Below are positions 19,792 to 33,895 of a DNA stretch of 33,895 nucleotides, in pieces. Where the stretch lies: IMG/VR virus record IMGVR_UViG_3300027563_000022, positions 1-33,895 of that record, one strand, 5' to 3'. Both the position numbers and the translations under genes were made by a program. The stretch is from a virus. Lineage: Duplodnaviria; Caudoviricetes. Each line of letters starts with the position of its first letter. The first letter of the stretch is position 1. The notes beneath the pieces were generated by a model. The model ran no database searches. It saw only the letters and a list, made by a program, of their open reading frames with translations, and was not told the DNA's origin.

Positions 19792-19917
19792 TTAGTTATT
19801 TGTTTTAATACCCTTAGAGCCACAACGTATACATATTTGATATGTTCTCATTGTGTAAGGACAAGAAGACTCTTCTATGTTATGACCTTTTACTGTACAT
19901 AAAAACTTTTTAATCAT
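19792..19917 (-). CDS. Small Cys/His protein (41 aa, DUF1660-like putative zinc binder)
   Basis: Not in the ORF track; MIKKFLCTVKGHNIEESSCPYTMRTYQICIRCGSKGIKTNN; start overlaps the end of the ferredoxin gene. Confidence 0.65.
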   Translation of the reverse strand: MIKKFLCTVKGHNIEESSCPYTMRTYQICIRCGSKGIKTNN

Positions 19918-20107
19918 TTATTACCTCAAAACTTATAGCCCTATTTGGGCAGTGTGCCTTTGCTTCTTCTACTTTTTCAAGAAGACTATCATCAGCCTTG
20001 TAAGACCATTTTTTTCTTTCACCGTCAACAAGGCTAAAAATTTCTGGTGCATCAAAAACACACTGACCCCATGCTTGGCAATCTTTATTAATTTTAATTT
20101 CAATCAT
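19910..20107 (-). CDS. Single-cluster ferredoxin, probably [3Fe-4S]
   Basis: 65 aa; 'CQAWGQCVFDAPEIF ... CPNRAI' matches the C-x2-X-x2-C...CP pattern of actinobacterial single-cluster ferredoxins. Confidence 0.85.
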   Translation of the reverse strand: MIEIKINKDCQAWGQCVFDAPEIFSLVDGERKKWSYKADDSLLEKVEEAKAHCPNRAISFEVIND

Positions 20108-20444
20108 TTTTATCTCCGTATGAATCTATTTGCTTTAATGCAGCAACAAGTTCTTCTTTTAGGTTATCAAAATTATTGAAGTCTGTATCTTCTATGTCTG
20201 ACTGTAGCACCCTAATCTTATTCTTAAGATTAATATACGCAGCAGAACTTTCTTGAAGCATTTTCTTTTTATTTTCATTTCTTTCTCTATCCATTGATTT
20301 TATTGTATTCCAATGTTTTGACCTATAAGAATCACGATCAACACGCAATTCTTTTATTGTCAGACTTGTATCTATATAATATTTATAAAAAACAAGAGCA
20401 AATATAGATATAAAAATTAAAAGAAAAATTATAAAAAATAGCAT
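20100..20444 (-). CDS. Membrane-anchored coiled-coil hypothetical protein
   Basis: N-terminal stretch of about 20 hydrophobic residues followed by a charged helical region. Confidence 0.65.
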   Translation of the reverse strand: MLFFIIFLLIFISIFALVFYKYYIDTSLTIKELRVDRDSYRSKHWNTIKSMDRERNENKKKMLQESSAAYINLKNKIRVLQSDIEDTDFNNFDNLKEELVAALKQIDSYGDKND

Positions 20445-20446
20445 AA

Positions 20447-20590
20447 CTATTCTGTCTTATTTGCTTCTAAATTAACTTCTACATCATCAGAAAATTTCAC
20501 AACTTCGCTGCAATAATCAACAAGAATCTCTGCAAGTTCGTTTGTAACAGTAAAATGAAACTTATCAGCAACTGTAATATTTCTACCCAT
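20447..20590 (-). CDS. Small hypothetical protein (47 aa)
   Basis: AGGAGG RBS before ATG 20590 (MGRNITVADK...). Confidence 0.6.
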   Translation of the reverse strand: MGRNITVADKFHFTVTNELAEILVDYCSEVVKFSDDVEVNLEANKTE

Positions 20591-20601
20591 TTTTTTACCT
20601 C

Positions 20602-21264
20602 CTATACCAATGGAATCCAGTGTTGTTCCCACTCTTTTGGAATTAACCTTAGTGGAATAACATCATATGCAATTGTAATTCTTGGACCATCCCAGTCCCA
20701 TTCACCCATAGCATGAGGGTGACCTGTTTCAGACAAGATAGCACGATTATTTTTATTGTGATTATCTATTTCTTTTTCAAAAACACGATAATGCGTAATT
20801 GATGGTTCTGCCTTTACACAGTAGTATCCGTGAAAATGTGGTGCACCTTCGCCACCATGTTCGTGCCAATCTAATTTTCCAATATGGCTATAATTTACAT
20901 TAAACCAGCCTTGGACCATAAACTGTTCTGAAATAAAATCAAGTTCATAGTGCTCGCAAGCATCTTTTGTCATATCACGAAGTGCACGAAATAGTGTGTG
21001 AATATTCTTATCATAAAATTGAAATACATTGTATTTATTCCAATTAACAGTAGTTACGCTTCCAGAAGAGTCCCAAGGGGTGTTGGAATTTGACTTACCC
21101 TTAATTAATTCTCCATCTTTGATTCGATTGTATTGCAGCAGCAAAAGTTGTTCAAGTTCTTCTAGATTGTTGATGTCAATCTGTCTCTCAAAAAACTTAT
21201 GATCTTTTTTTGATTTGCTGTTGCTTGGCTGTTGCGAATCACCATACTCATATTGCTTTTCCAT
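20602..21264 (-). CDS. Putative 2OG-Fe(II) oxygenase-fold protein (TIGR02466-like)
   Basis: 'QGWFNVN', 'WHEH', 'FHGYYCV', distal 'PHAM' and 'RITIAYD': HxH...H metal triad plus the Arg strand of a double-stranded beta-helix. Confidence 0.75.
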   Translation of the reverse strand: MEKQYEYGDSQQPSNSKSKKDHKFFERQIDINNLEELEQLLLLQYNRIKDGELIKGKSNSNTPWDSSGSVTTVNWNKYNVFQFYDKNIHTLFRALRDMTKDACEHYELDFISEQFMVQGWFNVNYSHIGKLDWHEHGGEGAPHFHGYYCVKAEPSITHYRVFEKEIDNHNKNNRAILSETGHPHAMGEWDWDGPRITIAYDVIPLRLIPKEWEQHWIPLV

Positions 21265-21272
21265 TTTTTATC

Positions 21273-22034
21273 CTATCTGTATTTTTTTCTAATCCATCTA
21301 TGTTTTTTATAAAAACCATAGAGATAATTTCTTTTTCTTTCGAGGTCCCAAATTCCCTCATTTTGTAATGAGTGGTCTACTTCCATTTGCCAATTTGCTC
21401 TTTTTATAGGAATAATTGACATTATTGGAGTTCCCTTTTCTATTGTTCCCTCAAAATCTTTCCGTAAGAAAAATGATACCACATTTCCCGTAAACCATCT
21501 ATCAGCATCTTGAATTGCGCTCATTGTAAAAAATGGTAGATCATATCTATCAATTGGATGGGTAATCAAGACTGACCAGCCCTCTGGCATTTTTGTTCCC
21601 CATCTCATGTCCCAAACAAAATGAATTGGATAGCATCCAGAAGGAACTGGAAGTTCTAGATGTCCTCTCATTTCAATAGGTCTTGCTTCAGATTCATCCC
21701 ACCAGACATCTGGCTTATCTGGATCATCAGTCTTTTTTACATGAATTGTAGTTGGTAGCAAATAGTGATAACCTGCAGTGATTGCATCAAAAAATGGCAT
21801 GCAGTGTTTAACACTAATAGATGCAGAGTCTGCACCACGATTATTCATCACTGAAAGTCTATCTATTTGATCAGTTAACTGATAAATTGGACGATCTTTC
21901 CACCAGTCTGGTAAATTATTTATTGCTGGAGATGGACCTGGTGTTGTGTCAATATATGCTGTAGAAGTATAAAATTGAAGTTTTAACTCTTCTAGTTCTG
22001 GTGTGTCTTTATATTTATCTTCAAACTTATCCAT
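21273..22034 (-). CDS. Conserved phage protein, DUF6065-like (possible dUTPase-like fold), paralog A
   Basis: 'LPDWWK...VKHCMPFFDAITAGY...HPIDRYDLPF...QDAD...GTPIMSIIPIKRANW'. Confidence 0.6.
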   Translation of the reverse strand: MDKFEDKYKDTPELEELKLQFYTSTAYIDTTPGPSPAINNLPDWWKDRPIYQLTDQIDRLSVMNNRGADSASISVKHCMPFFDAITAGYHYLLPTTIHVKKTDDPDKPDVWWDESEARPIEMRGHLELPVPSGCYPIHFVWDMRWGTKMPEGWSVLITHPIDRYDLPFFTMSAIQDADRWFTGNVVSFFLRKDFEGTIEKGTPIMSIIPIKRANWQMEVDHSLQNEGIWDLERKRNYLYGFYKKHRWIRKKYR

Positions 22035-22750
22035 TAGTTAAAAACCTTCTTTTCCCACATAATTCTTTTATATGCTCCGCCAAACTTATGTCTTAGTGAG
22101 TAAGTTATTTGATTAAAAACCTTTAAGTCTGGCTTTTCAAGTATGTTTGCTTCCCATTCTTCTCTTCTATATGGTATACATTGTACTAGTGGTGTTCCAG
22201 CCTCTATAACTCCTTTAAACCCTCTTTTAATTCTCATAGAGAATGGACCGTCAGAAACATACATATCTGTATCAATTATAGCAGGAACAATCTCAAAAGG
22301 TAGACTGGTATGAAAAGATGGCTGAACAAATAATGTACTTATACCTTTTTGTGTTCCTACTACCCACATTGGATGAATTCTAAAAATATCTTCCATCCAT
22401 TCTGTTTTATCAAAATCCCATCCTTCTACTTGCTCTTTAGCATGGACCGTAACTGATTCTTTATGTGCCTCGTGGACTTGATATTCTAATTTTGGACCAG
22501 TTGCATCTATATAAATATCACATGGTGTTTTTAGTAAATATCCAGTTGATAATAGATCTAAGATTCCTGGACATTTTTTTACAGTTTCATTATATTGACC
22601 ACTATATAGTTGTTTTTCACCATTTACATATGGGTGAACCTTTCTCCACCATGATGGTAAATTTTTTACCATTGGTTCTGGCTTAGATGTATATTCAATA
22701 ACATATTCGTTTTTTGGTATAAATGTAATTATATTCTTTTTATTTTTCAT
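22034..22750 (-). CDS. Conserved phage protein, DUF6065-like (possible dUTPase-like fold), paralog B
   Basis: 'LPSWWR...VKKCPGILDLLSTGY...LPF...IIDTD...GTPLVQCIPYRREEW'; likely ATG at 22750. Confidence 0.6.
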   Translation of the reverse strand: MKNKKNIITFIPKNEYVIEYTSKPEPMVKNLPSWWRKVHPYVNGEKQLYSGQYNETVKKCPGILDLLSTGYLLKTPCDIYIDATGPKLEYQVHEAHKESVTVHAKEQVEGWDFDKTEWMEDIFRIHPMWVVGTQKGISTLFVQPSFHTSLPFEIVPAIIDTDMYVSDGPFSMRIKRGFKGVIEAGTPLVQCIPYRREEWEANILEKPDLKVFNQITYSLRHKFGGAYKRIMWEKKVFN

Positions 22751-23489
22751 GATAGTCAACTTTCATATATAGAACTGTTGTGTCGTGCTTAATATAATGA
22801 AGATCTTTTTTTAGACCCTTTTTAAAAATTACTGGAACATCAATAACGCCTTCTGCATCTTTTGGCAACTCTTTAGTGTCAAACTTATATTCTTTAGTCT
22901 TCCAGTATACCATATCTTCATTTGTAAAAAATGTCAGGATTGCATCATCTTTTGGTAACCATCTAATTTTCCAATTATATATTCTTGGACACCACTCATC
23001 GTCTAACTCTTCTTCATCTACAACCATTTTTGAAGAATCTATATATTTATATAAAGTTCTAGTAATAAAAACAAATTCCATCAACTCTGCTTCTGAGCCA
23101 GACTCATATGTGTGAACAAATTGATTTTTATGTGGATATACATCAGCAGAAACATTTATTTTGTAAAGATTTTCTTCAATCTTTATTGGAGGCCGTACAA
23201 CCTCATGTGTCCATCTATTTTGCGGAACAAATACACTGTTTCCTTCTCGATAAATTCCATCCCAGTCTTCTTGTAAGGTAGCATATAGTTTCCCTAATTC
23301 GTTATCTTGATTTTCAGCATATACCCTTTCACTATATTTTCTAGTAAAAACGGCAATCTGAGGACTTATTGCATATGGCGTTGCAAGCCCTATCTTATCT
23401 TTATTAAGAGCAAGATGTTCGTCTGGAATTACAAGTTCTTCAGAATCCCATTCATCAGAATAATAATTATGATTTGGAACTCTAGCCAC
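22740..23489 (-). CDS. Hypothetical protein (249 aa)
   Basis: GTG start overlaps the stop of the Hint protein (TAGTG); no motif recognised with confidence. Confidence 0.7.
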   Translation of the reverse strand: MARVPNHNYYSDEWDSEELVIPDEHLALNKDKIGLATPYAISPQIAVFTRKYSERVYAENQDNELGKLYATLQEDWDGIYREGNSVFVPQNRWTHEVVRPPIKIEENLYKINVSADVYPHKNQFVHTYESGSEAELMEFVFITRTLYKYIDSSKMVVDEEELDDEWCPRIYNWKIRWLPKDDAILTFFTNEDMVYWKTKEYKFDTKELPKDAEGVIDVPVIFKKGLKKDLHYIKHDTTVLYMKVDYHEK

Positions 23490-24517
23490 TACTCTGGCTT
23501 TTCTACTCTGTCATAAACCAGTGCAGCATTTGTAAAGAACATGTCGTGAGGCTCACAGTTGATAGTAAATACTCTATCGATGAATGCAAGTTCGGTTGCT
23601 GATTCAACTGGAGACCAGTCAAGAGTTTGGAACTTGTATACCTCATATGTAGTATCTATATCAGAAGATTTTGTAAAACTGATTACATTATCTTTGCGAG
23701 TAAGTATCCAGTGATTTAAAGAATATATATCACCATTAATTTGTACAACCTTGTCTACAACCTTACTTGATATAGATGTAATTGTAGTTTCTGTAATACC
23801 ATTTCCAGATAAAGATTCTGATGACCATTCTAAAGGATTGAAGTTTGCCAGATCAATTTCAGCAATATCCAACGATACAAGTTTATCTCCAACCTTTAAT
23901 CTTTCGGCTGCAACTGCTCCATTTGGTGTTAATACTCCAGTATCTGCACCAATTGAATACCATCTTCCGAATCCACTAAACCCACCATATCCGTGACCGA
24001 ATCCATGGTAGAACCCACCATATCCGTGACCGAATGCATGGTAGAACGAGCCATATCCATGGCTGAATGAATGGTAGAACCCGCCATATCCGTGGCTAAA
24101 TCCATGGTAGAACCCATGATAGAAACCAGCATAGTGTGTAAACCCATGGTAGAAACCATGGTAGAACCCTGCATAGTGTGTAAATCCATGATAGAACCCA
24201 TGGTAGAAACCAGCATAATGCGTAAATCCGTGATAGAAACCATGGTAGAAACCTGCGTAGTGACTAAAACCAGGATATACGTAAATGTAATAGTTTATAC
24301 CAATTGTTGTTCCGTATGGAACGACTGTTCCAGGAGTGATATTCTGAGAATTCCATCTTTGGTCTAGTCCATTATCAGTAGTGTTAATTGATGACTCAGC
24401 ATAATACATACCAATACCTGATAGAAATGATTGATAAGAAGATCTTGAATACGAGGTGTCAAATGAAGGCACCTGCGCCTTTCTAATTGTTCTACCCTTA
24501 CTTCTTTGTAGTGCCAT
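23489..24517 (-). CDS. PASTA-like domain + His/Phe/Tyr/Gly repeat + C-terminal Hint domain protein
   Basis: aa ~15-80 are PASTA-like ('VPSF...SQNITPGTVVPYGTTI'); aa 83-187 are repeats; aa 188-342 are Hint-like ('SIGADTGVLTPNGAVAAERLKVGDKL', 'SLNH', 'VFTINCEPHDMFFTNAALVYD'); AGGAG RBS. Confidence 0.8.
   Translation of the reverse strand: MALQRSKGRTIRKAQVPSFDTSYSRSSYQSFLSGIGMYYAESSINTTDNGLDQRWNSQNITPGTVVPYGTTIGINYYIYVYPGFSHYAGFYHGFYHGFTHYAGFYHGFYHGFTHYAGFYHGFYHGFTHYAGFYHGFYHGFSHGYGGFYHSFSHGYGSFYHAFGHGYGGFYHGFGHGYGGFSGFGRWYSIGADTGVLTPNGAVAAERLKVGDKLVSLDIAEIDLANFNPLEWSSESLSGNGITETTITSISSKVVDKVVQINGDIYSLNHWILTRKDNVISFTKSSDIDTTYEVYKFQTLDWSPVESATELAFIDRVFTINCEPHDMFFTNAALVYDRVEKPE
23957..24271 (-). 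repeat. Coding tandem repeat: 4 x 42 bp (YAGFYHGFYHGF[T/S]H) then 3 x 33 bp (GYG[G/S]FYHxFxH)
   Basis: Read directly from the translation; 19 F-x-H triplets; copies differ mostly at synonymous positions. Confidence 0.95.
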
Positions 24518-24556
24518 TACATAATCTCCTTATATTCTTTTATTTTTTAATACTGG

Positions 24557-26404
24557 TTATGCTGACAAGTCGCCAAGTACCACGAAGGTATTTGCTGCTC
24601 GCTTTAAAACTGTTGCTGATGACCACTGTGCACGAAGTTTTAGTCCAGGAGTTGCATTTACTGTTACCCCTGATGCTCCTGCTACTGTTACTTGGCTTCC
24701 TGAAGTTTGAATTACATCTACGACTGCTCCGATTGGCCAGAAAGATGTATCTGAAGGAATAGTGAAAGTTCCTCCACCGCTCATTTCACGAACGTTTGAA
24801 ACATCTGCCTGTACTGCAGTGTGTGATCCGTTCATAACATTAATCGATGAAGAGTCAGTAGATACCTTTACCCAAGACCCTGCGTGTGCATAATACATTG
24901 CGCCTTCAGCATGTACGTGTGCCCAACGACCATGGTTTGATGATGCTGCTGGTAGTGCTGCTGCGTTATCATAGACTGGAATAGTGATTGTTGAGTATGA
25001 AAAATCACTAGTGTTAAGTTTATTTGATAGATTTGTTGTTACCGTTGTTGCAAAGTTGGCATCATTACCAAGTGAGGTAGCCAACTCATTAAGAGTATTT
25101 AGTGCTGCTGGTGCTGAAGCAACAAGGTCTGCTACTGCAGTTCCTACGAATGCTGTGGTTGCCACCTGTGTAGTACTTGTTCCCGCTGCTGCTGTTGGAG
25201 CACTTGGAACACCAGTAAATGTAGGTGAAGCAATGTTTGCTTTTAGAGCAATGGCTGTAGCAGATGTTGTAATTGCATCTGTCTTTGCATTGTCTGCATA
25301 TGACTTTGTTGCAAGATCTGCTGTATTTGCAATACCGTGAACATTTGTAGTTCCAGCAATGTGAGTTTCCCCTGTTGTTGCTTGTGACTTTAATGTAATA
25401 ATATCTGCCTCTGCAGTATTTGCTTTTGTTGTTACTGATCCTAGATCTGTTTCTACTTCAGAAAGGCTTGTTTGAATGCTAGAAACGCTTGACTCTAGTG
25501 CTGCAACATCTGCATCTGTTCCATTTAATGATGTATCTAGTTCTGTTATTGACTGAGTATTTGCTGCAACAGAAGTTTGAAGACTTGCAATATCTGCATC
25601 TGCTGCATCTAATGACTCTCCTAGGCCTGTTATTGACTGAGTGTTTCCTGAAACAGAAGTTTGAAGATTTGAAATACTTGTTGAGTTTGCTGTTACTTGA
25701 GATGAAACAGTTTCTAGTGTTGAAGTAACTGACTGAATATTAGAATTTGATGCATTAAGATCTGTGTCTAGATTTTCCAATCTTTCTTCGTTTGTTTCTT
25801 GATTAGCGTTAACTGTAGATATAAGATTTGTTACTGTTGTAGACAAACCAGAAACGTTTTGATTTGTTGCTGTTATTTTTGTATGTACAAATTCTGTTGT
25901 TGCTGCTTTGGTAGAATTGTCTGAGCCATCAACTGCTGGAAGTGTAACTGTTCCAGTAAATGTTGGATTAGCCTTTGGAGCCTTTAGGTCTAAACCTGCA
26001 GCAACTGTGTTAGCATAATTTGGGTCATTATTAAATGCTGCTGAAATTTCATTTAGAGTATCTAGGGCTGCTGGTGCGGCTCCTACAATTGTTGCAATTC
26101 TTCCATTGATAAGGCTTCCAATGTGTGCTTCTGGAAGTTGTGCTGTTGGTATAGTACCATTTGAATCTAGTGCTGCTACTCCATTTGCTACACCAATCTT
26201 TGTGTCCTTAACAAAACCATCTACGTCGATGTCAAGGCCGTCTAGGTTAATGAAGTACTTAAGGAGAGACCAAGTGTTTGTGCCATCACCAATCTTAAAC
26301 TTGTTGCTATCGGTTTCAAATCCAATTTCTCCTGCTGCTAGAACTGGGTTTGCAGCGGTCCATTGGGCTGCTAATCCTCTACGCTGTTGCATTCTTGTTG
26401 CCAT
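24557..26404 (-). CDS. Tail fibre / virion fibre protein with Mtd_N-like N-terminus and coiled-coil shaft
   Basis: 'MATRMQQRRGLAAQW...GEIGFETDSNKFKIGDG' (Mtd_N-like); two 'APAALxTLNE' and two 'PTFTG' fibre motifs; heptad shaft; C-terminal 'LRAQWSSATVLKRAANTFVVLGDLSA'. Confidence 0.8.
   Translation of the reverse strand: MATRMQQRRGLAAQWTAANPVLAAGEIGFETDSNKFKIGDGTNTWSLLKYFINLDGLDIDVDGFVKDTKIGVANGVAALDSNGTIPTAQLPEAHIGSLINGRIATIVGAAPAALDTLNEISAAFNNDPNYANTVAAGLDLKAPKANPTFTGTVTLPAVDGSDNSTKAATTEFVHTKITATNQNVSGLSTTVTNLISTVNANQETNEERLENLDTDLNASNSNIQSVTSTLETVSSQVTANSTSISNLQTSVSGNTQSITGLGESLDAADADIASLQTSVAANTQSITELDTSLNGTDADVAALESSVSSIQTSLSEVETDLGSVTTKANTAEADIITLKSQATTGETHIAGTTNVHGIANTADLATKSYADNAKTDAITTSATAIALKANIASPTFTGVPSAPTAAAGTSTTQVATTAFVGTAVADLVASAPAALNTLNELATSLGNDANFATTVTTNLSNKLNTSDFSYSTITIPVYDNAAALPAASSNHGRWAHVHAEGAMYYAHAGSWVKVSTDSSSINVMNGSHTAVQADVSNVREMSGGGTFTIPSDTSFWPIGAVVDVIQTSGSQVTVAGASGVTVNATPGLKLRAQWSSATVLKRAANTFVVLGDLSA
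25505..25675 (-). repeat. Imperfect 84-bp (28-aa, four-heptad) duplication in the fibre shaft
   Basis: ISNLQTSVSGNTQSITGLGESLDAADAD / IASLQTSVAANTQSITELDTSLNGTDAD; boundaries approximate. Confidence 0.8.
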
Positions 26405-26446
26405 TTTTAACTCTCCTTATGGGGTCTGCCCATGAATTTATACCTA

Positions 26447-26455: not shown

Positions 26456-26463
26456 TCAATATT

Positions 26464-26984: not shown

Positions 26985-28628
26985 TTACTTAAGTAGTGTT
27001 CCCATAACAGTAACTGTTGAGTTATTGTTAGCGGTTGTTACTAATAGTTGTACATTTGCTCCAGAAACTCCTGCTGAAATTGATGACGCTGAGCCATTTG
27101 TTCCAACAATTGCATACTCTGTAATTGCAATGTTATCTGAAGTGTCAAGTGTCAAAAGAACCTTTGAAACTTCAGTGTGTGTTCCGTAAGCAACCTTTAC
27201 AAGGTATTCTGCTGAACGGTAGTCAGCCTTTGCGAAAGCGTGGGCTGTCTGAACTCCTGCTGTTGGTGCTGCTAGTGTTGCTGCAACCTGCTTTGCAACT
27301 GAGTTTAACTCAACTTCTGCAAAGTCTGGTGTTACTGCTTCAAGAGCAGATACTGCACGAGCATTTGTGAAGTAGAGGTTTGTTCCTTCGGCAAGATCAG
27401 ATGTAGTAGAATCTGCTACACCGTTTTCTGCTGATATTACAAGACCGTTTTCATCACCTGTGATTGTAATGTTTGTCTTTGTTGCTGTTGTAATAAGGTT
27501 TGCTGCTGCAATCTTAGCACGAGATGTAGTAAAGTACTGCGCTGTTCCTTCTGCTACATCAGATGTTGTAAGCGCATCTGCGTGTGCAATTGCTGCGATA
27601 CGGGCTGCATCTGACTTATTAGTTGCATCTGTTGATGCTGTAGAAATTGCATTTGTAACTGCTGTTGCTCTAAGTGCTGCTTCTGCTGCTACCTTATCGG
27701 TTGCATCAGTTGCTGCTGCTGCGATTGCATCAGATTCTGCTGTATTAGCATAACCCTGTGCTGCTGTGTCAAGATCAGAAATTTCTGAGTTAACGTATGA
27801 TGTGTCAGCCTTTGTTCCAACAAGAGTTGTAAGGTTTGTGATTGTGTCTGGTGAATTACCAATTGCTACAGCCAACTCATTAAGAGTGTCTAGAAGTTCT
27901 GGCGCTGAATCAACAAGTGCTGAAACTGCTCCATCTGTATAAAGGTTTGCTGCAGTTAATGCATTGTTAGCCTTTGTAGTTGCATCTGCTGAGGCTGTTG
28001 CTTCTGCGTCTGATTGTGCTAGGTCTGCATAAGCCTGTGTTGCAAGAACATCTGCACCCCACTTGACAGAAGATCCTGCTGCTGGAGTAAGAACGATATG
28101 AGAATCAGAATTGATTGTCATTGCTCCTGCGCCAGTGAAGTTAAGTGTATCTCCAATAGTCTTGTTTGTTAATGTTTGTGTGTTTGTTGTTCCAACTACC
28201 GCACCTGTTGCACCGTGTGCGACTGTTAGGTTAGAGTGTGTTGTAAGGTCTGCTGCTGCATCTGCTGCTGCATCTGCTGCTGCGCCAAGAACATCGTATG
28301 ATGCTGCTGTTGCTGCAATTGCACGAGCATCTGTAAAGTATTTGTTTGTTGCATTTTCTGCAAGGTCTGCAGTGTCATGGTTTGAAATATCTGATACTTG
28401 ACCAGTTACGTCTGCTGTTATTGTTCCTGCAGCAAAGTTACCTGAAGCATCACGCTTTACAACCTTGTTTGCTTCGTTAGCAGATGTTGCTGTACCACCG
28501 ATAAGATTAACGATGTAATCTTGATCTGCTGTCTTCTTTGTTAGGATGTCCTGGTTATTGATTGTACCTGTTGTACCTTCAACTACGAGTCCCGCCTTTA
28601 CTTTGAAATCTTTTACTACTGTTGCCAT
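26985..28628 (-). CDS. Tail fibre-like virion protein (547 aa)
   Basis: 'KDFKVKAGL' start; 'RDASGNF', three 'T-x-D-[LV]-A-E...YFT' repeats, 'TQTLTNKT', 'APELLDTLNEL'; C-terminal beta domain. Confidence 0.75.
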   Translation of the reverse strand: MATVVKDFKVKAGLVVEGTTGTINNQDILTKKTADQDYIVNLIGGTATSANEANKVVKRDASGNFAAGTITADVTGQVSDISNHDTADLAENATNKYFTDARAIAATAASYDVLGAAADAAADAAADLTTHSNLTVAHGATGAVVGTTNTQTLTNKTIGDTLNFTGAGAMTINSDSHIVLTPAAGSSVKWGADVLATQAYADLAQSDAEATASADATTKANNALTAANLYTDGAVSALVDSAPELLDTLNELAVAIGNSPDTITNLTTLVGTKADTSYVNSEISDLDTAAQGYANTAESDAIAAAATDATDKVAAEAALRATAVTNAISTASTDATNKSDAARIAAIAHADALTTSDVAEGTAQYFTTSRAKIAAANLITTATKTNITITGDENGLVISAENGVADSTTSDLAEGTNLYFTNARAVSALEAVTPDFAEVELNSVAKQVAATLAAPTAGVQTAHAFAKADYRSAEYLVKVAYGTHTEVSKVLLTLDTSDNIAITEYAIVGTNGSASSISAGVSGANVQLLVTTANNNSTVTVMGTLLK

Positions 28629-28644
28629 TTTTTTATCTCCTTAG

Positions 28645-29091
28645 TTATGCCTTAAGTCCAATTCGTGCGTAACGAACTGTGACTGGCTTGATCGCAGGAT
28701 CTGGAGTGACTGTTAAAGCCACGGTATTTCCAGTGCGAGAGACATTAATGGTGCCAATATTCCCATTCGTGTCGATAGTGCCGTACTCACTGACTGATAC
28801 ATCTGTACCGTCAACAAGAATTGTTAATTCAGTTGCATAGAACTTGTTGTCCCCTGCAGAGGTCTTTGATATTGAAATAATATACTTGACCATACGCCAA
28901 ACTGTAGCATCGAAGTTATCGATAACAGTTGGATTTTCCAATCCATAAATTGTGTTATCGTTATTTCCTGATGAACCTAGATCGTTACCTGAACTTGCAA
29001 GGGTATCAATTAAATCTTCATAATCTCCTTGAGTAGGACGATCACCAGTTTGGAATTTTGTCTTTATTGCTGCGATTGTTGACTTTGCCAT
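28645..29091 (-). CDS. Virion structural protein (148 aa)
   Basis: 'KTKFQTGDRPTQGDYEDLID' N-terminal motif; C-terminal domain similar to that of 26985..28628. Confidence 0.65.
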   Translation of the reverse strand: MAKSTIAAIKTKFQTGDRPTQGDYEDLIDTLASSGNDLGSSGNNDNTIYGLENPTVIDNFDATVWRMVKYIISISKTSAGDNKFYATELTILVDGTDVSVSEYGTIDTNGNIGTINVSRTGNTVALTVTPDPAIKPVTVRYARIGLKA

Positions 29092-29097
29092 GGTTAT

Positions 29098-29103
29098 ATT
29101 ATA
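29098..29103 (-). promoter_or_regulatory. -10 box TATAAT, leaderless start
   Basis: 6 nt upstream of ATG 29091. Confidence 0.55.
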
Positions 29104-29122
29104 ACCTCCATTTTTTAAAATA

Positions 29123-29347
29123 TCAAAGTATATAGTTATTCAAACCGACCACTGCAATACCAATTGGAGCGGGATTTGAAGCGCTATAGGCATTGATTCC
29201 TATATTTGTAAACTTTACCCTAAAGGGTAAAACCTCATTTATTTTTACTGATCTTGTATCACTTGCTACATTTATAATTGCATAAGATACTGCGTTGATT
29301 GCTTTTAGTTTATTAGTTTTTTTACTTGATATTTTTGATGATGCCAT
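29123..29347 (-). CDS. Small hypothetical virion-module protein (74 aa)
   Basis: TAATG coupling to the upstream gene; ends 'PAPIGIAVVGLNNYIL'. Confidence 0.65.
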   Translation of the reverse strand: MASSKISSKKTNKLKAINAVSYAIINVASDTRSVKINEVLPFRVKFTNIGINAYSASNPAPIGIAVVGLNNYIL

Positions 29348-29742
29348 TAATCAGTTACATCTTCAATGACTACCATTTTCCCTTGAGCGACAGTCCAAAC
29401 ATACGCATCATTTGAAAGTTGTATATCGAAGATATCTCCTGTTTGGAGCATTACTGATTCTGAAGACAAAAGAGAGACTGTGAATTCTCCAATTAAATCG
29501 TCAGCATCTGCTAATGGTGTTAAAGAAATTATTGTTGTTGCGGAGTCTGTAAATGTTCCTGCGGGGGTTGGTCTTTTAATTTTCATATTAATATCCCAGT
29601 CAGCAATTACTAAAGGTTGTTTTGCATCGTCTGTTACATAAACACGAAAAGAGGCAGTATCTCCTTTTACAATAGTCCAGTTTACAAGTGGTGGTTTATT
29701 ACCTATGTCATATGATGAAGCGGATCCACGTAAAGTTGCCAT
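29347..29742 (-). CDS. Ig-like virion protein (BppU N-terminal-like)
   Basis: 'WTIVKGDTASF...W...FDIQL...TVAQGKMVVIEDVT' is a pattern seen in fibre/baseplate attachment proteins. Confidence 0.55.
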   Translation of the reverse strand: MATLRGSASSYDIGNKPPLVNWTIVKGDTASFRVYVTDDAKQPLVIADWDINMKIKRPTPAGTFTDSATTIISLTPLADADDLIGEFTVSLLSSESVMLQTGDIFDIQLSNDAYVWTVAQGKMVVIEDVTD

Positions 29743-29748
29743 AGGTTT

Positions 29749-29757
29749 ATTATATCA
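29749..29757 (-). promoter_or_regulatory. Extended -10 promoter TGATATAAT, leaderless start
   Basis: 6 nt upstream of ATG 29742; its TGA is also the stop codon of the upstream gene. Confidence 0.7.
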
Positions 29758-30282
29758 CGACAAGCCGTCTTTAAGTGCTTTCCAAGTGCCGTTGCCTTTT
29801 GCCTGAACAATTAAAATTCCTGATACCCCTGTTGCAGCGACTACACCAACTGCAGTTGCATTTCCAGTTACTGGCCTTGTTCCTGTTAATCCACCAGTTG
29901 ATCCAATATATACTGGATTGCCATTTGTAAAACTTCCTGTACTTAAATTAATATTTTCCATAACACCAGCAACAACTACAACTCCTTCAGAGTTATTCGC
30001 AAGTGGTTGTTTTAAAAGTCCTAAAATTGGACCCACTGTTGACTGGGTTGCAAATGATATTTCTGGTTTGGTTGAATATCCAGTTATATATACTGGAGTT
30101 CCTGCAGTCAGAGATTGTCCACTTTTATTAATAACACTAATCTGAAATGCAGATATTCCTAATGGTGGAAGAATTTCGTTTAATTTTGTTACAAGCCCCT
30201 TAATGTCTCCATGGACATTTACTGGGTCTTCTGCTTCTGGGAAGGGTAAATTGAACGGGCTTCCTGAGTTTCCTGTTGCCAT
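29755..30282 (-). CDS. Putative virion decoration/cement-like protein (175 aa)
   Basis: Gly-rich duplicated 'GTPVYI / GNPVYI' pattern resembling cement/decoration domains. Confidence 0.5.
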   Translation of the reverse strand: MATGNSGSPFNLPFPEAEDPVNVHGDIKGLVTKLNEILPPLGISAFQISVINKSGQSLTAGTPVYITGYSTKPEISFATQSTVGPILGLLKQPLANNSEGVVVVAGVMENINLSTGSFTNGNPVYIGSTGGLTGTRPVTGNATAVGVVAATGVSGILIVQAKGNGTWKALKDGLS

Positions 30283-30290
30283 AATGATTC

Positions 30291-30299
30291 ATTATACCA
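30291..30299 (-). promoter_or_regulatory. Extended -10 promoter TGGTATAAT
   Basis: 8 nt upstream of ATG 30282, no SD; divergent from the plus-strand promoter. Confidence 0.7.
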
Positions 30300-30337
30300 C
30301 TTTTAAAATATAACGTTTCTTAACATTACGTTAAAAC

Positions 30338-30367
30338 TTGACAAATTATAGAAAATTATGTTATACT
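30338..30367 (+). promoter_or_regulatory. Housekeeping sigma-type promoter TTGACA-N18-TATACT with TG extension
   Basis: TTGACA 30338-30343, TG 30359-30360, TATACT 30362-30367. Confidence 0.8.
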
Positions 30368-30415
30368 TGGTAGTAACAACCCTGAAAAGGGTTTTTCGTT
30401 TCTAAGGAGGAACAG

Positions 30416-30964
30416 ATGAATATATTACAAGATAAACAAAAACTCATCGGAATACTCACGATTATAGTGTTGGCAGCGCAAGGTCTTAATGGTGCTAATG
30501 CTAGTGAACGCAACAACTTAAGTACTAAAACCGTAGTTATTGAAGACCAAGCCTCGAAAGAGGTTTTTTTGATTTCTACAGAAGAAAAGTTAAAAAAGTT
30601 TGAAAACAAGGGTTCTCTAACCGATGGCGAACTCAAGGAACTTTTATACCTCGTTGGCTTTAGGGGCAACGATCTAAAGGAGGCTTGGGCAGTAGCCAAA
30701 AAAGAGTCTAATGGGCAACCTATCAGATTTAATGGAAACACCAATACTGGAGACAGTTCTTATGGTATGTTTCAGATTAATATGATTGGAATGCTTGGTC
30801 CTGATCGTAGAGAGAAGTTTAATCTTGTCTCTAATTCAGATCTTTTAAATCCCGTCATAAATGCACAAATTGCATTTCACATGTCAGACGGTGGAAAAGA
30901 TTGGTCTTCTTGGAAGGGCATTACTCCAAGAACTAAAATGTGGATGAGTAAGTTTCCAGAATAA
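30416..30964 (+). CDS. Secreted/membrane-anchored lysozyme-like lytic transglycosylase
   Basis: AAGGAGG RBS; N-terminal hydrophobic signal; SLT-family motifs 'AVAKKES' (catalytic Glu), 'YGMFQIN', 'NAQIA', 'WSSW'. Confidence 0.85.
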   Translation: MNILQDKQKLIGILTIIVLAAQGLNGANASERNNLSTKTVVIEDQASKEVFLISTEEKLKKFENKGSLTDGELKELLYLVGFRGNDLKEAWAVAKKESNGQPIRFNGNTNTGDSSYGMFQINMIGMLGPDRREKFNLVSNSDLLNPVINAQIAFHMSDGGKDWSSWKGITPRTKMWMSKFPE

Positions 30965-30978
30965 ATAACAATATATAA

Positions 30979-31015
30979 GAATAGCCACTCTAAAAATGGG
31001 TGGCTATTTTTATTT
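30979..31015. terminator. Terminator between convergent genes, possibly bidirectional
   Basis: AATAGCCACTC-TAAAAAT-GGGTGGCTATT hairpin with a T-run on the plus strand and TTCTTAT on the minus strand. Confidence 0.8.
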
Positions 31016-31549
31016 ATTTGCTCTAATGTGTGTGTACAAGTATTCTGGACCCTCAGTAAAATACCAGTGATCTGGCTCACAAAAGAAAAAGAAAGCATTG
31101 CAAACTAAGTTATTATCAGGATCTGGAAAGGCCTCTCTCCAGTGCTCTAGATCATTGCCATATGTCATTAATGCATCATTTTCTTCTAGCAAATATGGCT
31201 TTCCCTCTACCCAGATTTCCCAGGGAGTCTTCTGAAATACACAAAAATTTATATGATAAGTGCAAGCGTTATCATCTTTATGTTTCCATAACTTTGCCTC
31301 TTTGCCTTCGTAAACTGACATAAGGCACCAAGAAGGCTTAAGCGTTTCTGACTCAAAATGCTCTCTTGCAAACTCTGTTAGTAGTTCATGAAACTTATTT
31401 AATTCTTCAGTATTTGCCCATTGGTGTCTTCCAAATGATTCATCATAGTTTGGTTGGGTTGACCACATTTTCATAGCATACTGCTGTAGTTCTTTTAGTT
31501 CTTTTGGTGGAAGTATTGTTTTTATTATTTCAGATTCTTTAATATTCAT
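31010..31549 (-). CDS. 2OG-Fe(II) oxygenase (prolyl-hydroxylase/PKHD-like fold)
   Basis: 'SVYEG..LWKHKD' (HxD), 'W' before the second strand set, distal 'LEHWRE'; likely ATG 31549 coupled by TAATG. Confidence 0.8.
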   Translation of the reverse strand: MNIKESEIIKTILPPKELKELQQYAMKMWSTQPNYDESFGRHQWANTEELNKFHELLTEFAREHFESETLKPSWCLMSVYEGKEAKLWKHKDDNACTYHINFCVFQKTPWEIWVEGKPYLLEENDALMTYGNDLEHWREAFPDPDNNLVCNAFFFFCEPDHWYFTEGPEYLYTHIRANK

Positions 31550-31788
31550 TACCATTTCCCAATCGGACAGGACGCTTTCTCAAGTTTTGTTTTTACTTTC
31601 ATAATACAGCCACACTTTTTACATTGTGTAGTTAGTTTTATAAGTTCTGGACATGCCTTGCAAATAGAAAGTCTTTCTTTTGCTTTTTCTTCATCAGCCC
31701 ATTCTGTTGCAGGGTTTACTATGTCCCAAGGCCTTGTTTCTCCAAGATTTTTTTTCCATTTTTGATACGGAGATTCATTGTTTGTCAC
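31549..31788 (-). CDS. Small Cys-rich protein (DUF6171-like)
   Basis: 'RLSICKACPEL...QCKKCGCIMKVKTKL..ASCPIGKW', six Cys. Confidence 0.75.
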   Translation of the reverse strand: MTNNESPYQKWKKNLGETRPWDIVNPATEWADEEKAKERLSICKACPELIKLTTQCKKCGCIMKVKTKLEKASCPIGKW

Positions 31789-31793
31789 TATTT

Positions 31794-32186
31794 CTACTCC
31801 TCTAATAGTTTAAAAGTTATTTCTGGGCTACTACTAAGAGCAGCAATTCTCTGATCGTTATTAGATACTCCAATACAATATCCTATTCCTCCATAATAAA
31901 CATTGTCAACCAAAAAAGCAATAGACTCACACCCCTCTACGCAAGGAGCCGTACAAGCAGGCTTGTGTTCTATTCCATCTGGGTGTACAAAAGATGAACC
32001 ATTCCAGACGCTTTTTCTTGCTGGGAAATAATTTAAATGAGTTATATTTAAAACAGTTGGACTGTTTGAAAGAGCATAACATTTATCATTTTGTAAAGGA
32101 TCTATAGGAGTTCCATCAGAATTTACATCAATAGATAAAAAATGTATGGAATCTCCATCAATATTTGCAAAAAATTCTTTTCTCAT
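31794..32186 (-). CDS. Hypothetical protein with internal duplication (130 aa)
   Basis: Two similar halves ending 'NDKCYALSNSP' and 'NDQRIAALSSSP'. Confidence 0.7.
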   Translation of the reverse strand: MRKEFFANIDGDSIHFLSIDVNSDGTPIDPLQNDKCYALSNSPTVLNITHLNYFPARKSVWNGSSFVHPDGIEHKPACTAPCVEGCESIAFLVDNVYYGGIGYCIGVSNNDQRIAALSSSPEITFKLLEE

Positions 32187-32193
32187 ATCAATT

Positions 32194-32199
32194 ATTATA
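32194..32199 (-). promoter_or_regulatory. -10 box TATAAT, leaderless start
   Basis: 7 nt upstream of ATG 32186, no SD. Confidence 0.55.
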
Positions 32200-32207
32200 C
32201 CCTATCA

Positions 32208-33809
32208 CTAGTCATTACATCCAATCACGGCTCCACAATTATCTGTAATTAAACAATATCCACCGTTACATTGAGCATCTGGGTATCCTACACAGAAGTT
32301 AGTTCCACTACACGATGGTGTAGGCGTTGGTGTTGGTGTTGGGTCTGGTGTAGGCGTTGGTGTAGGCGTTGGTGCTGTATAAGAACAGCATCTATATTGT
32401 TGATCAGTAGTTCCGTCTGAATAATAAACAGTGTCCATTCTTTCTCCACCTTCTGGGCAGTATGGATCTGATATACATGTTCCAGTTTCAGTACGCAATA
32501 TTGTTCTTTGTGTAGGAGTTGGACCAGGGCCTGTAGGTGTAGGTGCAACGTATCCACATGCAACGCTATTAACCTCATGGTCTGACCAATCAGTAGGAAC
32601 ATCATACTGATAATCATATTCAGAAAATACACCATTGATAAACTTCGATCTTCTGGAATCTATTAGTGCTCTTACTTGTCTTGTAGTTCCAGAACACCTA
32701 TATTCCTCAGTATCTTCATAAGCAACCCAATCGCTGTATGTTATGGTTGGCGTTGTTGGTGTTGGGTCAGGTGTGTAAGAGCAGCATACAGTGAGTTCAG
32801 TACTAGTTCCATCTGAATAGTAAACAGTATCTATCCTTTCTCCACCTCCTGGGCACTGTGGGAATGGCGTACATGTTCCAATTGTTCTACTTGTTTCTGT
32901 TTTTGGTGTAGGTGTTGGTACCCATGGTCTTCCATCACTGTCACAGCAAGTATCTCCGCATACAGAATCATAACTTGAAGTCATACCAGGCTTTGGACAG
33001 ACTGGGGCTGAGCAAGCAACAGAAGGATACGCTCCTGTGTTGTTATACGAACAATCTTGTGCTGAGATTGTTCCAGTACATGCAAGATCAACATTGTCAT
33101 ATGCACTAGAACATGAAACGGTGCTACTTCCATAAACTAGAGTATAAGTTGAGCCATTAACACAACATCCTGTTGCATAGTATGCATAAGATGCAGGAGG
33201 TGTTGGAGTAGCGACAGCAGTTGTAAAGGTTGTACTATTTGATGCAGAATCACCAGTATAGTTTGCATTAGCGTACAGGGTAACTGTTACAGAGTAAGTT
33301 GTTCCAGCAGAAAACCCAGAGAGTAAAACAGGAGGACCGCCTGCAGAACTAGCGCTGTTACTGCTAGATCCGTTAGATGCAATTACAGTGTATGAACCCC
33401 ATCCGCTTCCTCCCCAAGTAATATATGCTTGATTTTCAGTCCATGCTTGCCCTGGTCCTGCGCCGTATGCGATAACACCGCCAATATTTGGATAAGGAGT
33501 TGGGGTTGGTCCCACTGGAGTTGGGGTTGGTCCCACTGGAGTTGGGGTAGGCGTAGGGACTACAACATATGAATAATATTCAAAATCTATAGTTGACTCA
33601 TACTGAAGAAGTGATCCTGTATCAACTCTTCCTTTAGCCTTACCATTGTTTGAAGAATTAGCACCACCGCTATTTCCTATAGATGTTTCATTACCTAATG
33701 CAAACCCAGCGCTTGTAATTGCTGTTCTGGCCTCATTGAGAGTCAATCCTTCTAGGTTTGGGATTATCCCCATACCTTTTGAAGAAGACCATAGACCAAA
33801 ATTTAGCAT
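32208..33809 (-). CDS. PASTA-like + Pro-Thr repeat + fibronectin type III + Cys-rich protein
   Basis: 'IPNLEGLTLNEARTAITSAGF' (PASTA-like); several PTPTP tracts; FN3-like 'ITW...Y...LSGFSAGTTYSVTVT'; 26 Cys in the C-terminal ~320 aa. Confidence 0.8.
   Translation of the reverse strand: MLNFGLWSSSKGMGIIPNLEGLTLNEARTAITSAGFALGNETSIGNSGGANSSNNGKAKGRVDTGSLLQYESTIDFEYYSYVVVPTPTPTPVGPTPTPVGPTPTPYPNIGGVIAYGAGPGQAWTENQAYITWGGSGWGSYTVIASNGSSSNSASSAGGPPVLLSGFSAGTTYSVTVTLYANANYTGDSASNSTTFTTAVATPTPPASYAYYATGCCVNGSTYTLVYGSSTVSCSSAYDNVDLACTGTISAQDCSYNNTGAYPSVACSAPVCPKPGMTSSYDSVCGDTCCDSDGRPWVPTPTPKTETSRTIGTCTPFPQCPGGGERIDTVYYSDGTSTELTVCCSYTPDPTPTTPTITYSDWVAYEDTEEYRCSGTTRQVRALIDSRRSKFINGVFSEYDYQYDVPTDWSDHEVNSVACGYVAPTPTGPGPTPTQRTILRTETGTCISDPYCPEGGERMDTVYYSDGTTDQQYRCCSYTAPTPTPTPTPDPTPTPTPTPSCSGTNFCVGYPDAQCNGGYCLITDNCGAVIGCND
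32376..32879 (-). repeat. Two copies of a 36-aa Cys module (32772-32879 and 32376-32483)
   Basis: GTCTPFPQCPGGGERIDTVYYSDGTSTELTVCCSYT / GTCISDPYCPEGGERMDTVYYSDGTTDQQYRCCSYT. Confidence 0.9.
33496..33548 (-). repeat. 21-bp tandem repeat (~2.5 copies) encoding VGPTPTP
   Basis: GGAGTTGGGGTTGGTCCCACT repeated exactly on the plus strand. Confidence 0.9.
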
Positions 33810-33816
33810 TTGGAAC

Positions 33817-33895
33817 CTACGCCGTCAAATCGCCAATAAGAATCCAGGTATTGGTATCTATCTTTGAAATTACTGCACCTGAGTATTGGGCTGCA
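33817..33895 (-). CDS. C-terminal end of a fibre-like protein (partial), with a C-domain paralogous to 24557..26404
   Basis: Translates AAQYSGAVISKIDTNTWILIGDLTA*, matching RAQWSSATVLKRAANTFVVLGDLSA*. Confidence 0.75.
   Translation of the reverse strand, partial: AAQYSGAVISKIDTNTWILIGDLTA

Follow-up and report, generated by a model that had tools for sequence, protein, structure and literature searches.

Virion proteins of mycobacteriophages are glycosylated, and in the Skp1-type pathway hydroxylation of Pro is followed by GlcNAc transfer by a GT60 enzyme (Pfam PF11397). Host-dependent methylation of a phage tail has been described (PMC13445384). In T-even gp38-type adhesins, including those of hafunaviruses, a separate variable low-complexity gene stands behind the fibre gene and is followed by a small gene (PMC8651126). 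Bacterial operons of predicted hydroxylases with tail-collar or collagen-like genes were reported by Iyer et al. 2010, who read the dioxygenase arrays of cyanophages as secondary metabolism (PMC2938197, cited sections).

Two gene sets of a freshwater phage, cassettes A and B, each with a gene for a repeat-rich protein (tip A, tip B) behind a fibre gene, were analysed in the window, the whole stretch of 33,895 nucleotides. They are like the Skp1-type pathway in that relatives of cassette A pair an oxygenase with GT60 next to Pro/Thr tracts, and unlike it in that the window has no GT60 and its oxygenase A lies outside the P4H-like family. Glycosylated mycobacteriophage virions and methylated tails are similar as structural-protein decoration able to decide adsorption, but involve sugars or methyl groups and, in the cited part of PMC13445384, no repeat substrate with a cassette-borne oxygenase. 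The gp38-type gene order resembles that of the cassettes, whereas the window's tips differ from the adhesins in the cited part of PMC8651126 by their PASTA anchor, their repeats (aromatic or Pro-Thr), a Hint cap and the enzyme-like genes next to them; neither a gp38 family match nor the Gly-rich polyglycine-II pattern was found in them. By analogy, the tips may work like a gp38-type adhesin. The operons of Iyer et al. share 2OG oxygenases for which a fibre-like or low-complexity protein of the same gene set was proposed as substrate, but are bacterial, hold beta-hydroxylases and sulfotransferases and, in the cited sections, come without repeat-enzyme matching, PASTA, Hint or DUF6065 (PMC2938197). 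A repeat-matched fibre-tip modification cassette was not found in the literature searched, the nearest idea being this bacterial-operon prediction.

Gene order and probable attachment to the fibre

The twice-repeated gene order claimed in the initial annotation was borne out (table 1). Both fibre genes end in homologous domains (the GDLxA C-termini quoted there lie at 33894-33817 and 24632-24557, minus strand), and the next genes, 7 bases downstream in cassette A and 39 bases in cassette B, both open with a tail measured at roughly 12-16 aa, in keeping with the 15 aa or so proposed, and a PASTA-family domain. More than 100 distinct cassettes share this layout of an adaptor gene followed by a PASTA/repeat gene, and two other runs each yielded one contig that rebuilt cassette B gap-free (X1, X14). 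The modules had also been called interchangeable, and this held: near-identical backbones with a common PASTA head carry different bodies and downstream genes (related loci L101, L104, L105 and L106), and a second, unrelated adaptor lineage (L240) also carries the His cassette together with its four partners. The '2OG-Fe(II) enzyme set' was correct for both cassettes as regards one oxygenase-like gene, and the term 'oxygenase cluster' was wrong for most of cassette B, which holds that gene and three dUTPase-fold/DUF6065-like genes.

The 'GDLxA fibre' assigned to both cassettes stood as a shared terminal domain, and as a long fibre in B but not in A. The window ends inside gene A; in L101, 100% identical over the gene next to A, the A homologue is a 209-aa protein whose last 96 aa align with the end of fibre B (615 aa) at 34% over 71 aa and E 2e-11. 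Gene A as a long fibre was rejected on the short adaptor seen in L101. The adaptor domain also terminates minor tail proteins of Gordonia phages, and in Gordonia phage Ebert it is followed by an ordinary minor tail gene, without enzymes. The proposed location at the fibre tip was supported indirectly: 19 distinct natural adaptor-repeat fusions, found among 37 adaptor ORFs, support a physical link of repeat and fibre, and tail type tracks adaptor type (aromatic tail in 25/32 with the A-type adaptor, basic tail in 62/74 with the B-type).

Table 1. Features of cassettes A and B in the window.
Feature	Position	Strand	Remark
Adaptor gene A, last 25 codons and stop, GDLxA adaptor domain at end	33817..33894	-	full 209 aa in L101
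Tip protein A, 533 aa: aromatic N-tail, PASTA (about 33767-33555), Pro-Thr tracts, beta-rich insert, Cys-rich modules	32208..33809	-
130-aa protein, no known family	31794..32186	-	similarly patterned small proteins stand behind many tips
DUF6171 Cys-rich small protein	31549..31788	-	present in 80/80 cassette-A oxygenase loci
Oxygenase-like protein A, PHROG 2954, invariant H-x-D...H	31010..31555	-	tracks (Thr/Val-Pro)n repeats
Fibre B, 615 aa: Mtd_N head, coiled coil, tail-fibre repeats, GDLxA adaptor domain (24847-24560)	24557..26404	-
Tip protein B, residues 1-82: basic N-tail and PASTA-family domain	24272..24517	-
Tip protein B repeat, residues 83-187: F-Y-H-G, F-x-H-Y-x-G and F-x-H-G-Y-G-G units	23957..24271	-
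Tip protein B Hint domain: Ser188 = position 1, block-B His269, Tyr-Asp replacing His-Asn, 6-residue tail	23489..23956	-
c5, 249 aa, predicted dUTPase-like fold	22740..23489	-	in 23/23 His cassettes, 0/94 others
c2a, DUF6065-like, PHROG 7084, I-I-D-T-D	22034..22753	-
c2b, second DUF6065-like paralogue	21273..22034	-
Oxygenase-like protein B (c3), H134-x-H136...H184, R195	20602..21264	-	tracks [G/S/A/N]-Phe repeats
114-aa protein, hydrophobic N-terminus	20100..20444	-	conserved in His cassette
Ferredoxin (Fer4_13)	19910..20107	-	in 20/22 scorable His cassettes
41-aa Cys-rich ORF	19792..19917	-	similar-looking short ORFs follow c3 in L078, L079 (not aligned)

Tip proteins and their neighbours

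The PASTA-like domain proposed for both tips was confirmed for A by a direct Pfam match (PF03793) and for B via the family profile, which matched PknB PASTA (E 2.5e-13), 21/29 aligned tip-family members matching PASTA. Tip B alone had no PASTA match in the Pfam search, and direct BLAST of the tip A and tip B N-termini found nothing. Residue counts agreed with the annotated repeats, Pro-Thr in A (26 Pro-Thr pairs, 52 Pro, 79 Thr and 26 Cys) versus His-Phe-Tyr-Gly in B, where the 105-aa tract contains 29 Gly, 21 Phe, 20 Tyr, 19 His and 19 F-x-H units, all 21 Phe being preceded by Gly, Ser, Ala or Asn.

Tip B ends in a 150-aa Hint (intein-like) domain, which was missed in the initial annotation; none is present in tip A. 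A profile of 25 tips matched the BIL domain 2lwy (E 7e-7) and the gp41-1 intein (E 3e-5), a relative (L016) scored 22.3 bits against TIGR01445, under the cut-off of 24.5, and the block-B His is invariant (23/23 and 25/25 rows). Assignment as an intein or A-type BIL was rejected on the absence of C-terminal His-Asn, tip B having Tyr335-Asp336-Arg337. Relatives carry Cys1 with His-Asn. BIL domains (PDB 2lwy) are alike in placing a Hint fold in a variable protein, with cleavage without splicing expected; compared with those in the cited part of PMC7765530, tip B has Ser1 and a Tyr-Asp end, is a phage late gene and lacks the A-type His-Asn. In one locus (L050) a Peptidase_S74 autocleaving chaperone occupies the Hint slot.

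Oxygenase-like protein A gave PHROG 2954, labelled 'ferrochelatase', as its only family match and none in Pfam, NCBIfam or PDB; its triad (H90, D92, H136) is invariant in 6/6. In c3 the canonical H-x-D/E...H facial triad is absent and H-x-H...H is found instead. No direct family match at cut-off was obtained for c3, and 12 of the 32 distant kin tested (of 150 listed) matched 2OG-FeII_Oxy_5 (PF13759) below cut-off (best E 4e-5). c3 may nevertheless act as a 2OG-Fe(II) oxygenase; the 2OG fold of both proteins is predicted from motifs and weak indirect matches, with no family match at cut-off.

A structure model of c5 (pLDDT 80.6) retrieved dUTPase-family folds in the top 22 rows, with a middling best Z of 6.9 (rmsd 3.6, 116 aligned). 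Trimeric dUTPases have five catalytic motifs; by eye, only a motif-3-like Asp and a motif-4-like strand were recognised in the trio of c5, c2a and c2b, none of which matched Pfam dUTPase, and the I-I-D-T-D of c2a is similar to motif 3. No direct Pfam match to DUF6065 (PF19541) was obtained, and the designation as DUF6065-like came from HHalign (96% to the DUF6065 alignment) and Atlas (0.97 to clusters with 12-21% DUF6065). Homologues of c2b adjoin adhesin genes of HF1/HF2-like haloarchaeal viruses, which carry a c2 homologue in the gp38-type adhesin region.

The 130-aa protein of cassette A is likely a tip assembly factor, judged by what we take to be a likeness to such factors. GT60 (PF11397) was found in 27/80 oxygenase-A loci, and no glycosyltransferase in the window's cassette A. 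The ferredoxin may serve cassette B or the class II RNR that follows it.

Co-variation of repeat type and enzyme family

The co-variation check proposed in the initial annotation was run from the enzyme side, on 80 loci fetched with c3 and 80 loci fetched with oxygenase A, and was borne out in both tests, with few well-supported independent contrasts. An upstream repeat was present in 72/80 c3 loci, often only 1-110 bases away, and was always [G/S/A/N]-Phe (51 F-x-P-F/F-G-F, 19 His and 2 N-F-Y); in oxygenase-A loci it was present in 77/80, and 76 of these were (Thr/Val-Pro)n. The other cassette's repeat occurred in 0/72 and 0/77 loci, respectively, and no match to c3, c2 or c5 was found in the 80 oxygenase-A loci. 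In pooled cassettes, intact c3 accompanied 55/57 Phe-type and 0/60 other repeats, counts that are inflated because many rows were fetched by c3. Tree contrasts for c3, averaged over 200 bootstrap trees, came to 9.6 same, 0 opposite and 2 tied (p at most 0.004); on well-supported branches only, the counts were 5, 0 and 2 (p 0.06). The sole gene common to three unlike repeats on two anchor types was c3; the association of His with c5 has a single origin.

A broader test, which paired Pro repeats with canonical oxygenases, came out negative (3.5 same, 1 opposite, p 0.6); a canonical oxygenase stands beside Pro-free QNT tips, and none beside several Pro tips. In favour of modified tips, 10 of 12 Pro-Phe tips with no hydroxylase behind have at least one upstream; against it, an F-S-P-F tip in L149 has no c3 behind it. 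Linkage can mimic matching of repeat and enzyme, because tip and enzymes move as one block.

Proposed mechanism and alternatives

Since each repeat type stands beside its own oxygenase-like family, the enzymes likely decorate the phage's own fibre tips. On balance, the cassettes are probably swappable fibre-tip appendages, in which phage enzymes from the genes immediately downstream, matched to the motif of the low-complexity repeat, modify that repeat. Behind a gene with an adaptor domain comes one for tail, PASTA/Fn3-like domain and repeat, capped in some cases by a Hint domain; the N-tail and PASTA domain would dock on the adaptor domain, because tail type tracks adaptor type and the fusions join adaptor directly to repeat without tail or PASTA. 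Oxygenase A would act on (Thr/Val-Pro)n, most likely by Pro hydroxylation as suggested by co-occurrence, with GT60 glycosyltransferases presumably adding a sugar in relatives. Oxygenase B would act on [G/S/A/N]-Phe, most likely on Phe, which the His, F-x-P-F and N-F-Y types all share. The three predicted dUTPase-fold paralogues may form one complex, perhaps a heterotrimer, binding or modifying the His repeat, and the Hint cap would keep the sticky repeat soluble and then self-cleave at Tyr187/Ser188 without splicing. The end product would be a sticky, decorated host-binding tip. A repeat-to-enzyme code is a tentative and rather doubtful extension: c3, as a new 3-His oxygenase family, would hydroxylate Phe in [G/S/A/N]-Phe, the dUTPase-fold heterotrimer would add a nucleotide-dependent change on His, and the Ser-type Hint cap would release or ligate the tract, giving a mussel- or squid-like adhesive tip.

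Tips that are unmodified adhesins, with neighbours acting as sequence-specific chaperones or assembly factors on borrowed enzyme folds, are unlikely, given that the metal ligands are invariant in intact c3 and oxygenase A and that GT60, radical SAM and sugar-epimerase genes, unneeded for such a role, occupy the tip-neighbour slot in relatives. This reading is favoured by the NPGF cassettes, which retain a c3 homologue with all three His lost together with a second motif-less oxygenase-like gene (6/6 scorable), by dUTPase folds in CMV pp71 and herpesvirus ORF10 (among the c5 fold-search rows), two viral proteins with a non-catalytic role, and by the halovirus c2 homologue, which lies by adhesin genes in a 14.7-kb stretch on which no oxygenase is annotated. 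That homologue also neighbours an RNR, cassette B holds three predicted dUTPase-fold genes and ends in ferredoxin and class II RNR, c3 occurs in L252 and L253 with no tip gene within 5.6-6.9 kb upstream, and phage 2OG oxygenases have been assigned to DNA repair or nitrogen control (PMC3037559, PMC10611076, cited parts). These points are consistent with a role of the enzymes in nucleotide or host metabolism or in changing the surface of the host, their place beside the tip gene reflecting nothing more than linkage within a variable island. We consider this reading quite improbable: where adaptors are near-identical, a different repeat type comes with a different enzyme family in the same slot, another fibre gene rather than RNR comes after many c2 cassettes, and in the 72 and 77 loci with an upstream repeat neither cassette's enzyme was found with the other's repeat.

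The RiPP-like logic of the initial annotation was not upheld, no leader, protease or transporter/export gene being recognised among the window's genes or the 80 neighbour proteins scanned. It is very unlikely that the repeat is a RiPP-like core or Hint-ligated cargo, released or envelope-attached and no part of the virion; cleavage at Ser188 would leave the repeat attached to the PASTA domain, and the adaptor-repeat fusions bind it to a fibre domain. Some tips do end in a bare Phe-rich tract of 30-85 residues with c3 as the next gene (L243, L295, L296, L300), as cargo might, and a Ser1 Hint without His-Asn could by analogy transfer its ester to another molecule, as the Hedgehog Hint does (PMC7765530, cited part).

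Aquatic phages carry many 2OG-type oxygenase genes, which are explained loosely in papers as DNA repair or nitrogen control. With modification of the tip repeats as the preferred reading, a specific candidate substrate, short enough to be synthesised, can be named for two oxygenase-like families, and the genome itself supplies a negative control, namely the repeat of the other cassette, so that an old open question becomes testable by peptides and mass spectrometry. If the reading is true, host recognition in these phages hinges on chemistry added at the fibre tip, and two orphan families acquire a function, as does DUF6065; were the repeat-to-enzyme code also true, there would be a substrate for many genes of aquatic viruses that encode orphan oxygenases or DUF6065 proteins.

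Setting and architecture of the cassettes

The window spans the entire record (33,895 bases) and holds a tailed-phage late region with tape measure, major capsid, portal, class II ribonucleotide reductase (RNR) and fibre genes; almost every gene is encoded on the minus strand. Runs containing the stretch were mostly labelled freshwater or lake metagenomes; it was also present in six RNA runs, with flat contig depth, which is no evidence on transcription. PASTA domains, together with the Gordonia phages that made up 193 of 200 adaptor-domain matches, point to a putative actinobacterial host.

The initial annotation had described one gene order, running from fibre to PASTA-like repeat protein to oxygenases, as occurring twice (cassettes A and B). 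Both C-termini quoted in it were located in the window, and the domains that they end were homologous (E 2e-11); 'adaptor domain' here denotes this shared C-terminal region of gene A (last 96 aa) and fibre B. A PASTA-family domain was found in the next gene of both cassettes, which encodes the repeat-bearing tip protein. Just 25 codons of gene A lie inside the window, and the remainder was taken from the 209-aa protein of L101, a locus from another viral record. Cassette B was reassembled without gaps in sequencing runs X1 and X14. The adaptor domain was matched in 559 of 573 candidate viral-contig stretches, 80 of which were fetched. A PDB sequence search with it gave no real match, BLAST of the tip A N-terminus against that of tip B gave no match, and a single-sequence fold of tip B (pLDDT 43) was unusable.

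Features of the window and of loci fetched from other viral records (L-numbers)
Locus	Position	Strand	Feature
Window	33894-31010	-	Cassette A: end of adaptor gene A, tip A (Pro-Thr), DUF6171 gene, oxygenase A
Window	31555-31010	-	Oxygenase A
Window	30416-30964	+	Lysozyme-like SLT_3 gene directly after cassette A, on opposite strand; position kept in relatives
Window	26404-19792	-	Cassette B: fibre B, tip B (His-Phe-Tyr-Gly repeat, Hint), c5, c2a, c2b, c3
Window	23489-22740	-	c5
Window	22753-22034	-	c2a
Window	22034-21273	-	c2b
Window	21264-20602	-	c3
Window	17677-19707	-	Class II (B12) RNR between cassette B and 1247-aa structural-looking gene
L001/L002	103-1821		Also twin cassettes; first is adaptor fused to Pro-Thr repeat
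L107	6555-7992		Different fibre C-terminal domain, then Pro-Val-Ala-Pro repeat gene, DUF6171, oxygenases
L108	8768-10159		As L107
L295	5247-6935		One adaptor, two tandem tip genes each ending in bare (Asn-Phe-Tyr)n, c3 directly next
L057	12099-12545		Nucleotidyltransferase (Polbeta) gene directly behind c2 gene in (Asn-Glu-Pro-Val)n cassette
L222 (HRTV-5, NC_021320.1)	6923-7765		c2/DUF6065-like gene between Gly-rich adhesin region and RNR
L039/L040/L043	near 1160		+1 shift
L073	near 1190		+1 shift
L064/L066, second cassette	near 4180		+1 shift
L062/L064/L065/L066/L072	just behind adaptor gene		+1 shift

The N-terminal tail and PASTA domain together would best be read as the docking part of the tip, because of three observations. 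Among 37 adaptor-bearing ORFs, 19 distinct proteins extend beyond the adaptor domain, nearly all entering a Pro-Thr/Val repeat directly, without tail or PASTA (L337 has adaptor, repeat and Hint in a single frame); tail type tracks adaptor type, being aromatic (M-L-N-F) with 25 of 32 A-type adaptors and basic with 62 of 74 B-type adaptors; and the adaptor domain ends a tail protein in Gordonia phage Ebert, where a minor tail gene comes next. PASTA domains may also bind peptidoglycan. Since L107 and L108 show the layout behind another fibre C-terminal domain, the grammar extends beyond the GDLxA adaptor.

The proposal that these are interchangeable modules was borne out by L101, L104, L105 and L106, which have near-identical flanks and PASTA heads, differing tip bodies, and differing neighbours that include GT60 glycosyltransferases, a radical SAM gene and epimerase-like genes. 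Pro-Phe tips alternate with F-x-P-F tips inside close clades of the adaptor tree, and the enzyme set switches each time. The His cassette formed a single clade on the first tree; in L240 a His cassette with c5, c2, c2 and c3 sits on another adaptor lineage.

Repeat types and enzyme families

Starting from the fibre, enough sequence lay downstream for analysis in 93 of 122 cassettes; nine rows (seven frameshifted Pro-Phe tips, L051 and L166) were manually relabelled. c5 accompanied a His repeat in 22 of 22 cases, all of one origin, intact c3 was present in 24 of 27 His or F-x-P-F cassettes versus 0 of 66 others, and canonical oxygenases in 44 of 58 Pro-repeat cassettes versus 3 of 35 others; none of these associations was significant, with just one to four supported pairs. 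Raw counts also agreed for Thr-rich repeats with glycosyltransferase, Cys-rich with DUF6171 and Phe-rich with DUF6065, not significantly (one to three supported pairs). A candidate class of short His repeats without c3 was dropped, c3 having been found further downstream.

Sampling was then started from the enzymes, and the predicted co-variation of repeat type with enzyme family was recovered on both sides. For c3, 80 of 316 matching stretches were fetched, with the expectation already set by the fibre-first result; a repeat lay upstream in 72 (51 F-x-P-F/F-G-F, 19 His and 2 N-F-Y; 52 distinct), and none of these was Pro-Phe, Pro-Thr or NPGF. Because the F-x-P-F pattern was widened and the N-F-Y class added once the c3 data had been viewed, the precise definition of the class is in part post hoc; this does not apply to the lack of Pro-Phe and Pro-Thr. 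Of the eight loci without a repeat, six have less than 2 kb upstream, and L252 and L253 are true exceptions. For oxygenase A, 80 of 356 matching stretches were fetched, and 77 had a repeat within 3.5 kb, which was (Thr/Val-Pro)n in 76 and mixed Pro-Thr/Pro-Phe in one; the other three have less than 800 bases upstream. DUF6171 accompanied all 80 and GT60 27, and c3, c2 and c5 were found in none.

In the pooled set (117 of 134 distinct cassettes, with at least 2.5 kb downstream), intact c3 was present in 55 of 57 Phe-type versus 0 of 60 other cassettes, a difference inflated by c3-first sampling. In pairwise contrasts for c3 the best tree gave 10 to 0, 200 bootstrap trees a mean of 9.6 to 0 and the starred branches of treekit 5 to 0 (p 0.06); the median p for Pro-Phe against at least three P4H-like genes was 0.03, and the broad contrast of Pro repeats with oxygenases failed (p 0.6). 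Because the units swapped are linked blocks, the contrasts show block cohesion rather than many independent pairings. More weight is carried by two other facts: no gene but c3 is shared by three dissimilar repeats, whose anchors include PASTA and non-PASTA types, and all 21 Phe residues in the tip B repeat are preceded by Gly, Ser, Ala or Asn.

Genes behind the tips

The 'oxygenase cluster' assigned to tip B was right for c3 only, which is oxygenase-like (H-x-H...H and a late Arg); c2a and c2b are instead DUF6065-like (HHalign 96%; Atlas), and c5 has a predicted dUTPase-like fold. The c5 model (pLDDT 80.6) gave dUTPase-family folds for all of its top 22 structural matches, the best with a middling Z of 6.9; HHalign of c5 was weak against c2 (11%) and nil against DUF6065, and an Atlas search with it returned nothing usable. 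Distant c3 kin matched PF13759 below the cut-off in 12 of 32 tested. Oxygenase A has an invariant H-x-D...H and matched no family beyond PHROG 2954. PDB sequence searches with c2, c3 and oxygenase A gave no real match; a close-relative scan of bacterial and archaeal genomes for c2b and a search of cultured phages for c3 were also blank, which shows little. SGNH-like, sulfotransferase-like and 'k35' glycosyltransferase labels were assigned by eye.

Catalysis need not be what is selected in every case: because the c3 homologue retained in NPGF cassettes has lost its His residues, selection on binding alone can be envisaged. In NPGF cassettes L015, L023, L047, L052, L056 and L075, two oxygenase-like genes that lack metal ligands are conserved, and a single intact P4H-like gene lies next to them. 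For c2, a homologue occurs in 48 haloarchaeal virus records (HF1/HF2-like), and no annotated oxygenase lies in its vicinity in HRTV-5, where its neighbours are the Gly-rich adhesin region and RNR; this placement would fit a tip helper or nucleotide metabolism alike. The Polbeta neighbour in L057 may hint at nucleotide-dependent chemistry. The HF1/HF2-like viruses with a c2 homologue are cultured and permit a knockout test.

Tip endings and relation to known systems

A Hint domain, missed in the initial annotation, caps tip B at its C-terminal end, and such a cap is present in 76 of 117 distinct tips; the other endings are Cys-rich modules, bare repeat or a Peptidase_S74 chaperone (L050). A profile of 25 tip Hint domains matched the BIL structure 2lwy (E 7e-7). 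In tip B, the domain has Ser188 at position 1 and an invariant His269 and ends in Tyr-Asp-Arg, from which N-terminal cleavage, and not splicing, would be expected. A class-3 intein was rejected, since in the alignment the invariant Cys321 falls three columns past the block-F Asp position, as was a group of Cys1/His-Asn tips without enzymes, hydroxylase genes lying upstream of 10 of 12 such Pro-Phe tips. In His cassettes L100 and L122-L124 the repeat is short and consists of FYHG alone, the Hint is eroded, with neither Ser1 nor Cys-Glu-Pro clearly recognisable, and GT25 and sugar-dehydratase genes are inserted ahead of c3.

Outside the window, the Pro-Phe tip gene is split near its start by a +1 shift in four distinct sequences at 11 places. 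Every shift falls at a CGG codon, with a stop within two codons after it, and CGG is absent from the long ORFs of the five shift loci counted (2,463-5,106 codons each). Possibly a hungry codon here triggers a programmed shift, which would set the tip-to-fibre ratio.

In the papers cited here, hydroxylases of bacterial operons were proposed to act on tail-collar and collagen-like proteins encoded next to them, and cyanophage arrays were interpreted as secondary metabolism (Iyer et al. 2010, PMC2938197); phage 2OG oxygenases were assigned to DNA repair or nitrogen control (PMC3037559, PMC10611076), hafunavirus adhesins are host-range determinants (PMC8651126), BIL types are defined (PMC7765530), and tail methylation is host-dependent and required for adsorption (PMC13445384). 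The literature search, with most subscription journals and bioRxiv supplements outside it, returned no paper on DUF6065 and no description of the layout; the supplementary neighbourhoods of Iyer et al. may hold related operons.

The modular fibre-tip system is real and widespread, and its repeat-to-enzyme association has been tested. Among known kinds it would stand as modification of phage virion proteins, carried on a tip module resembling gp38, and enzymatic tailoring of the tips appears reasonably probable.
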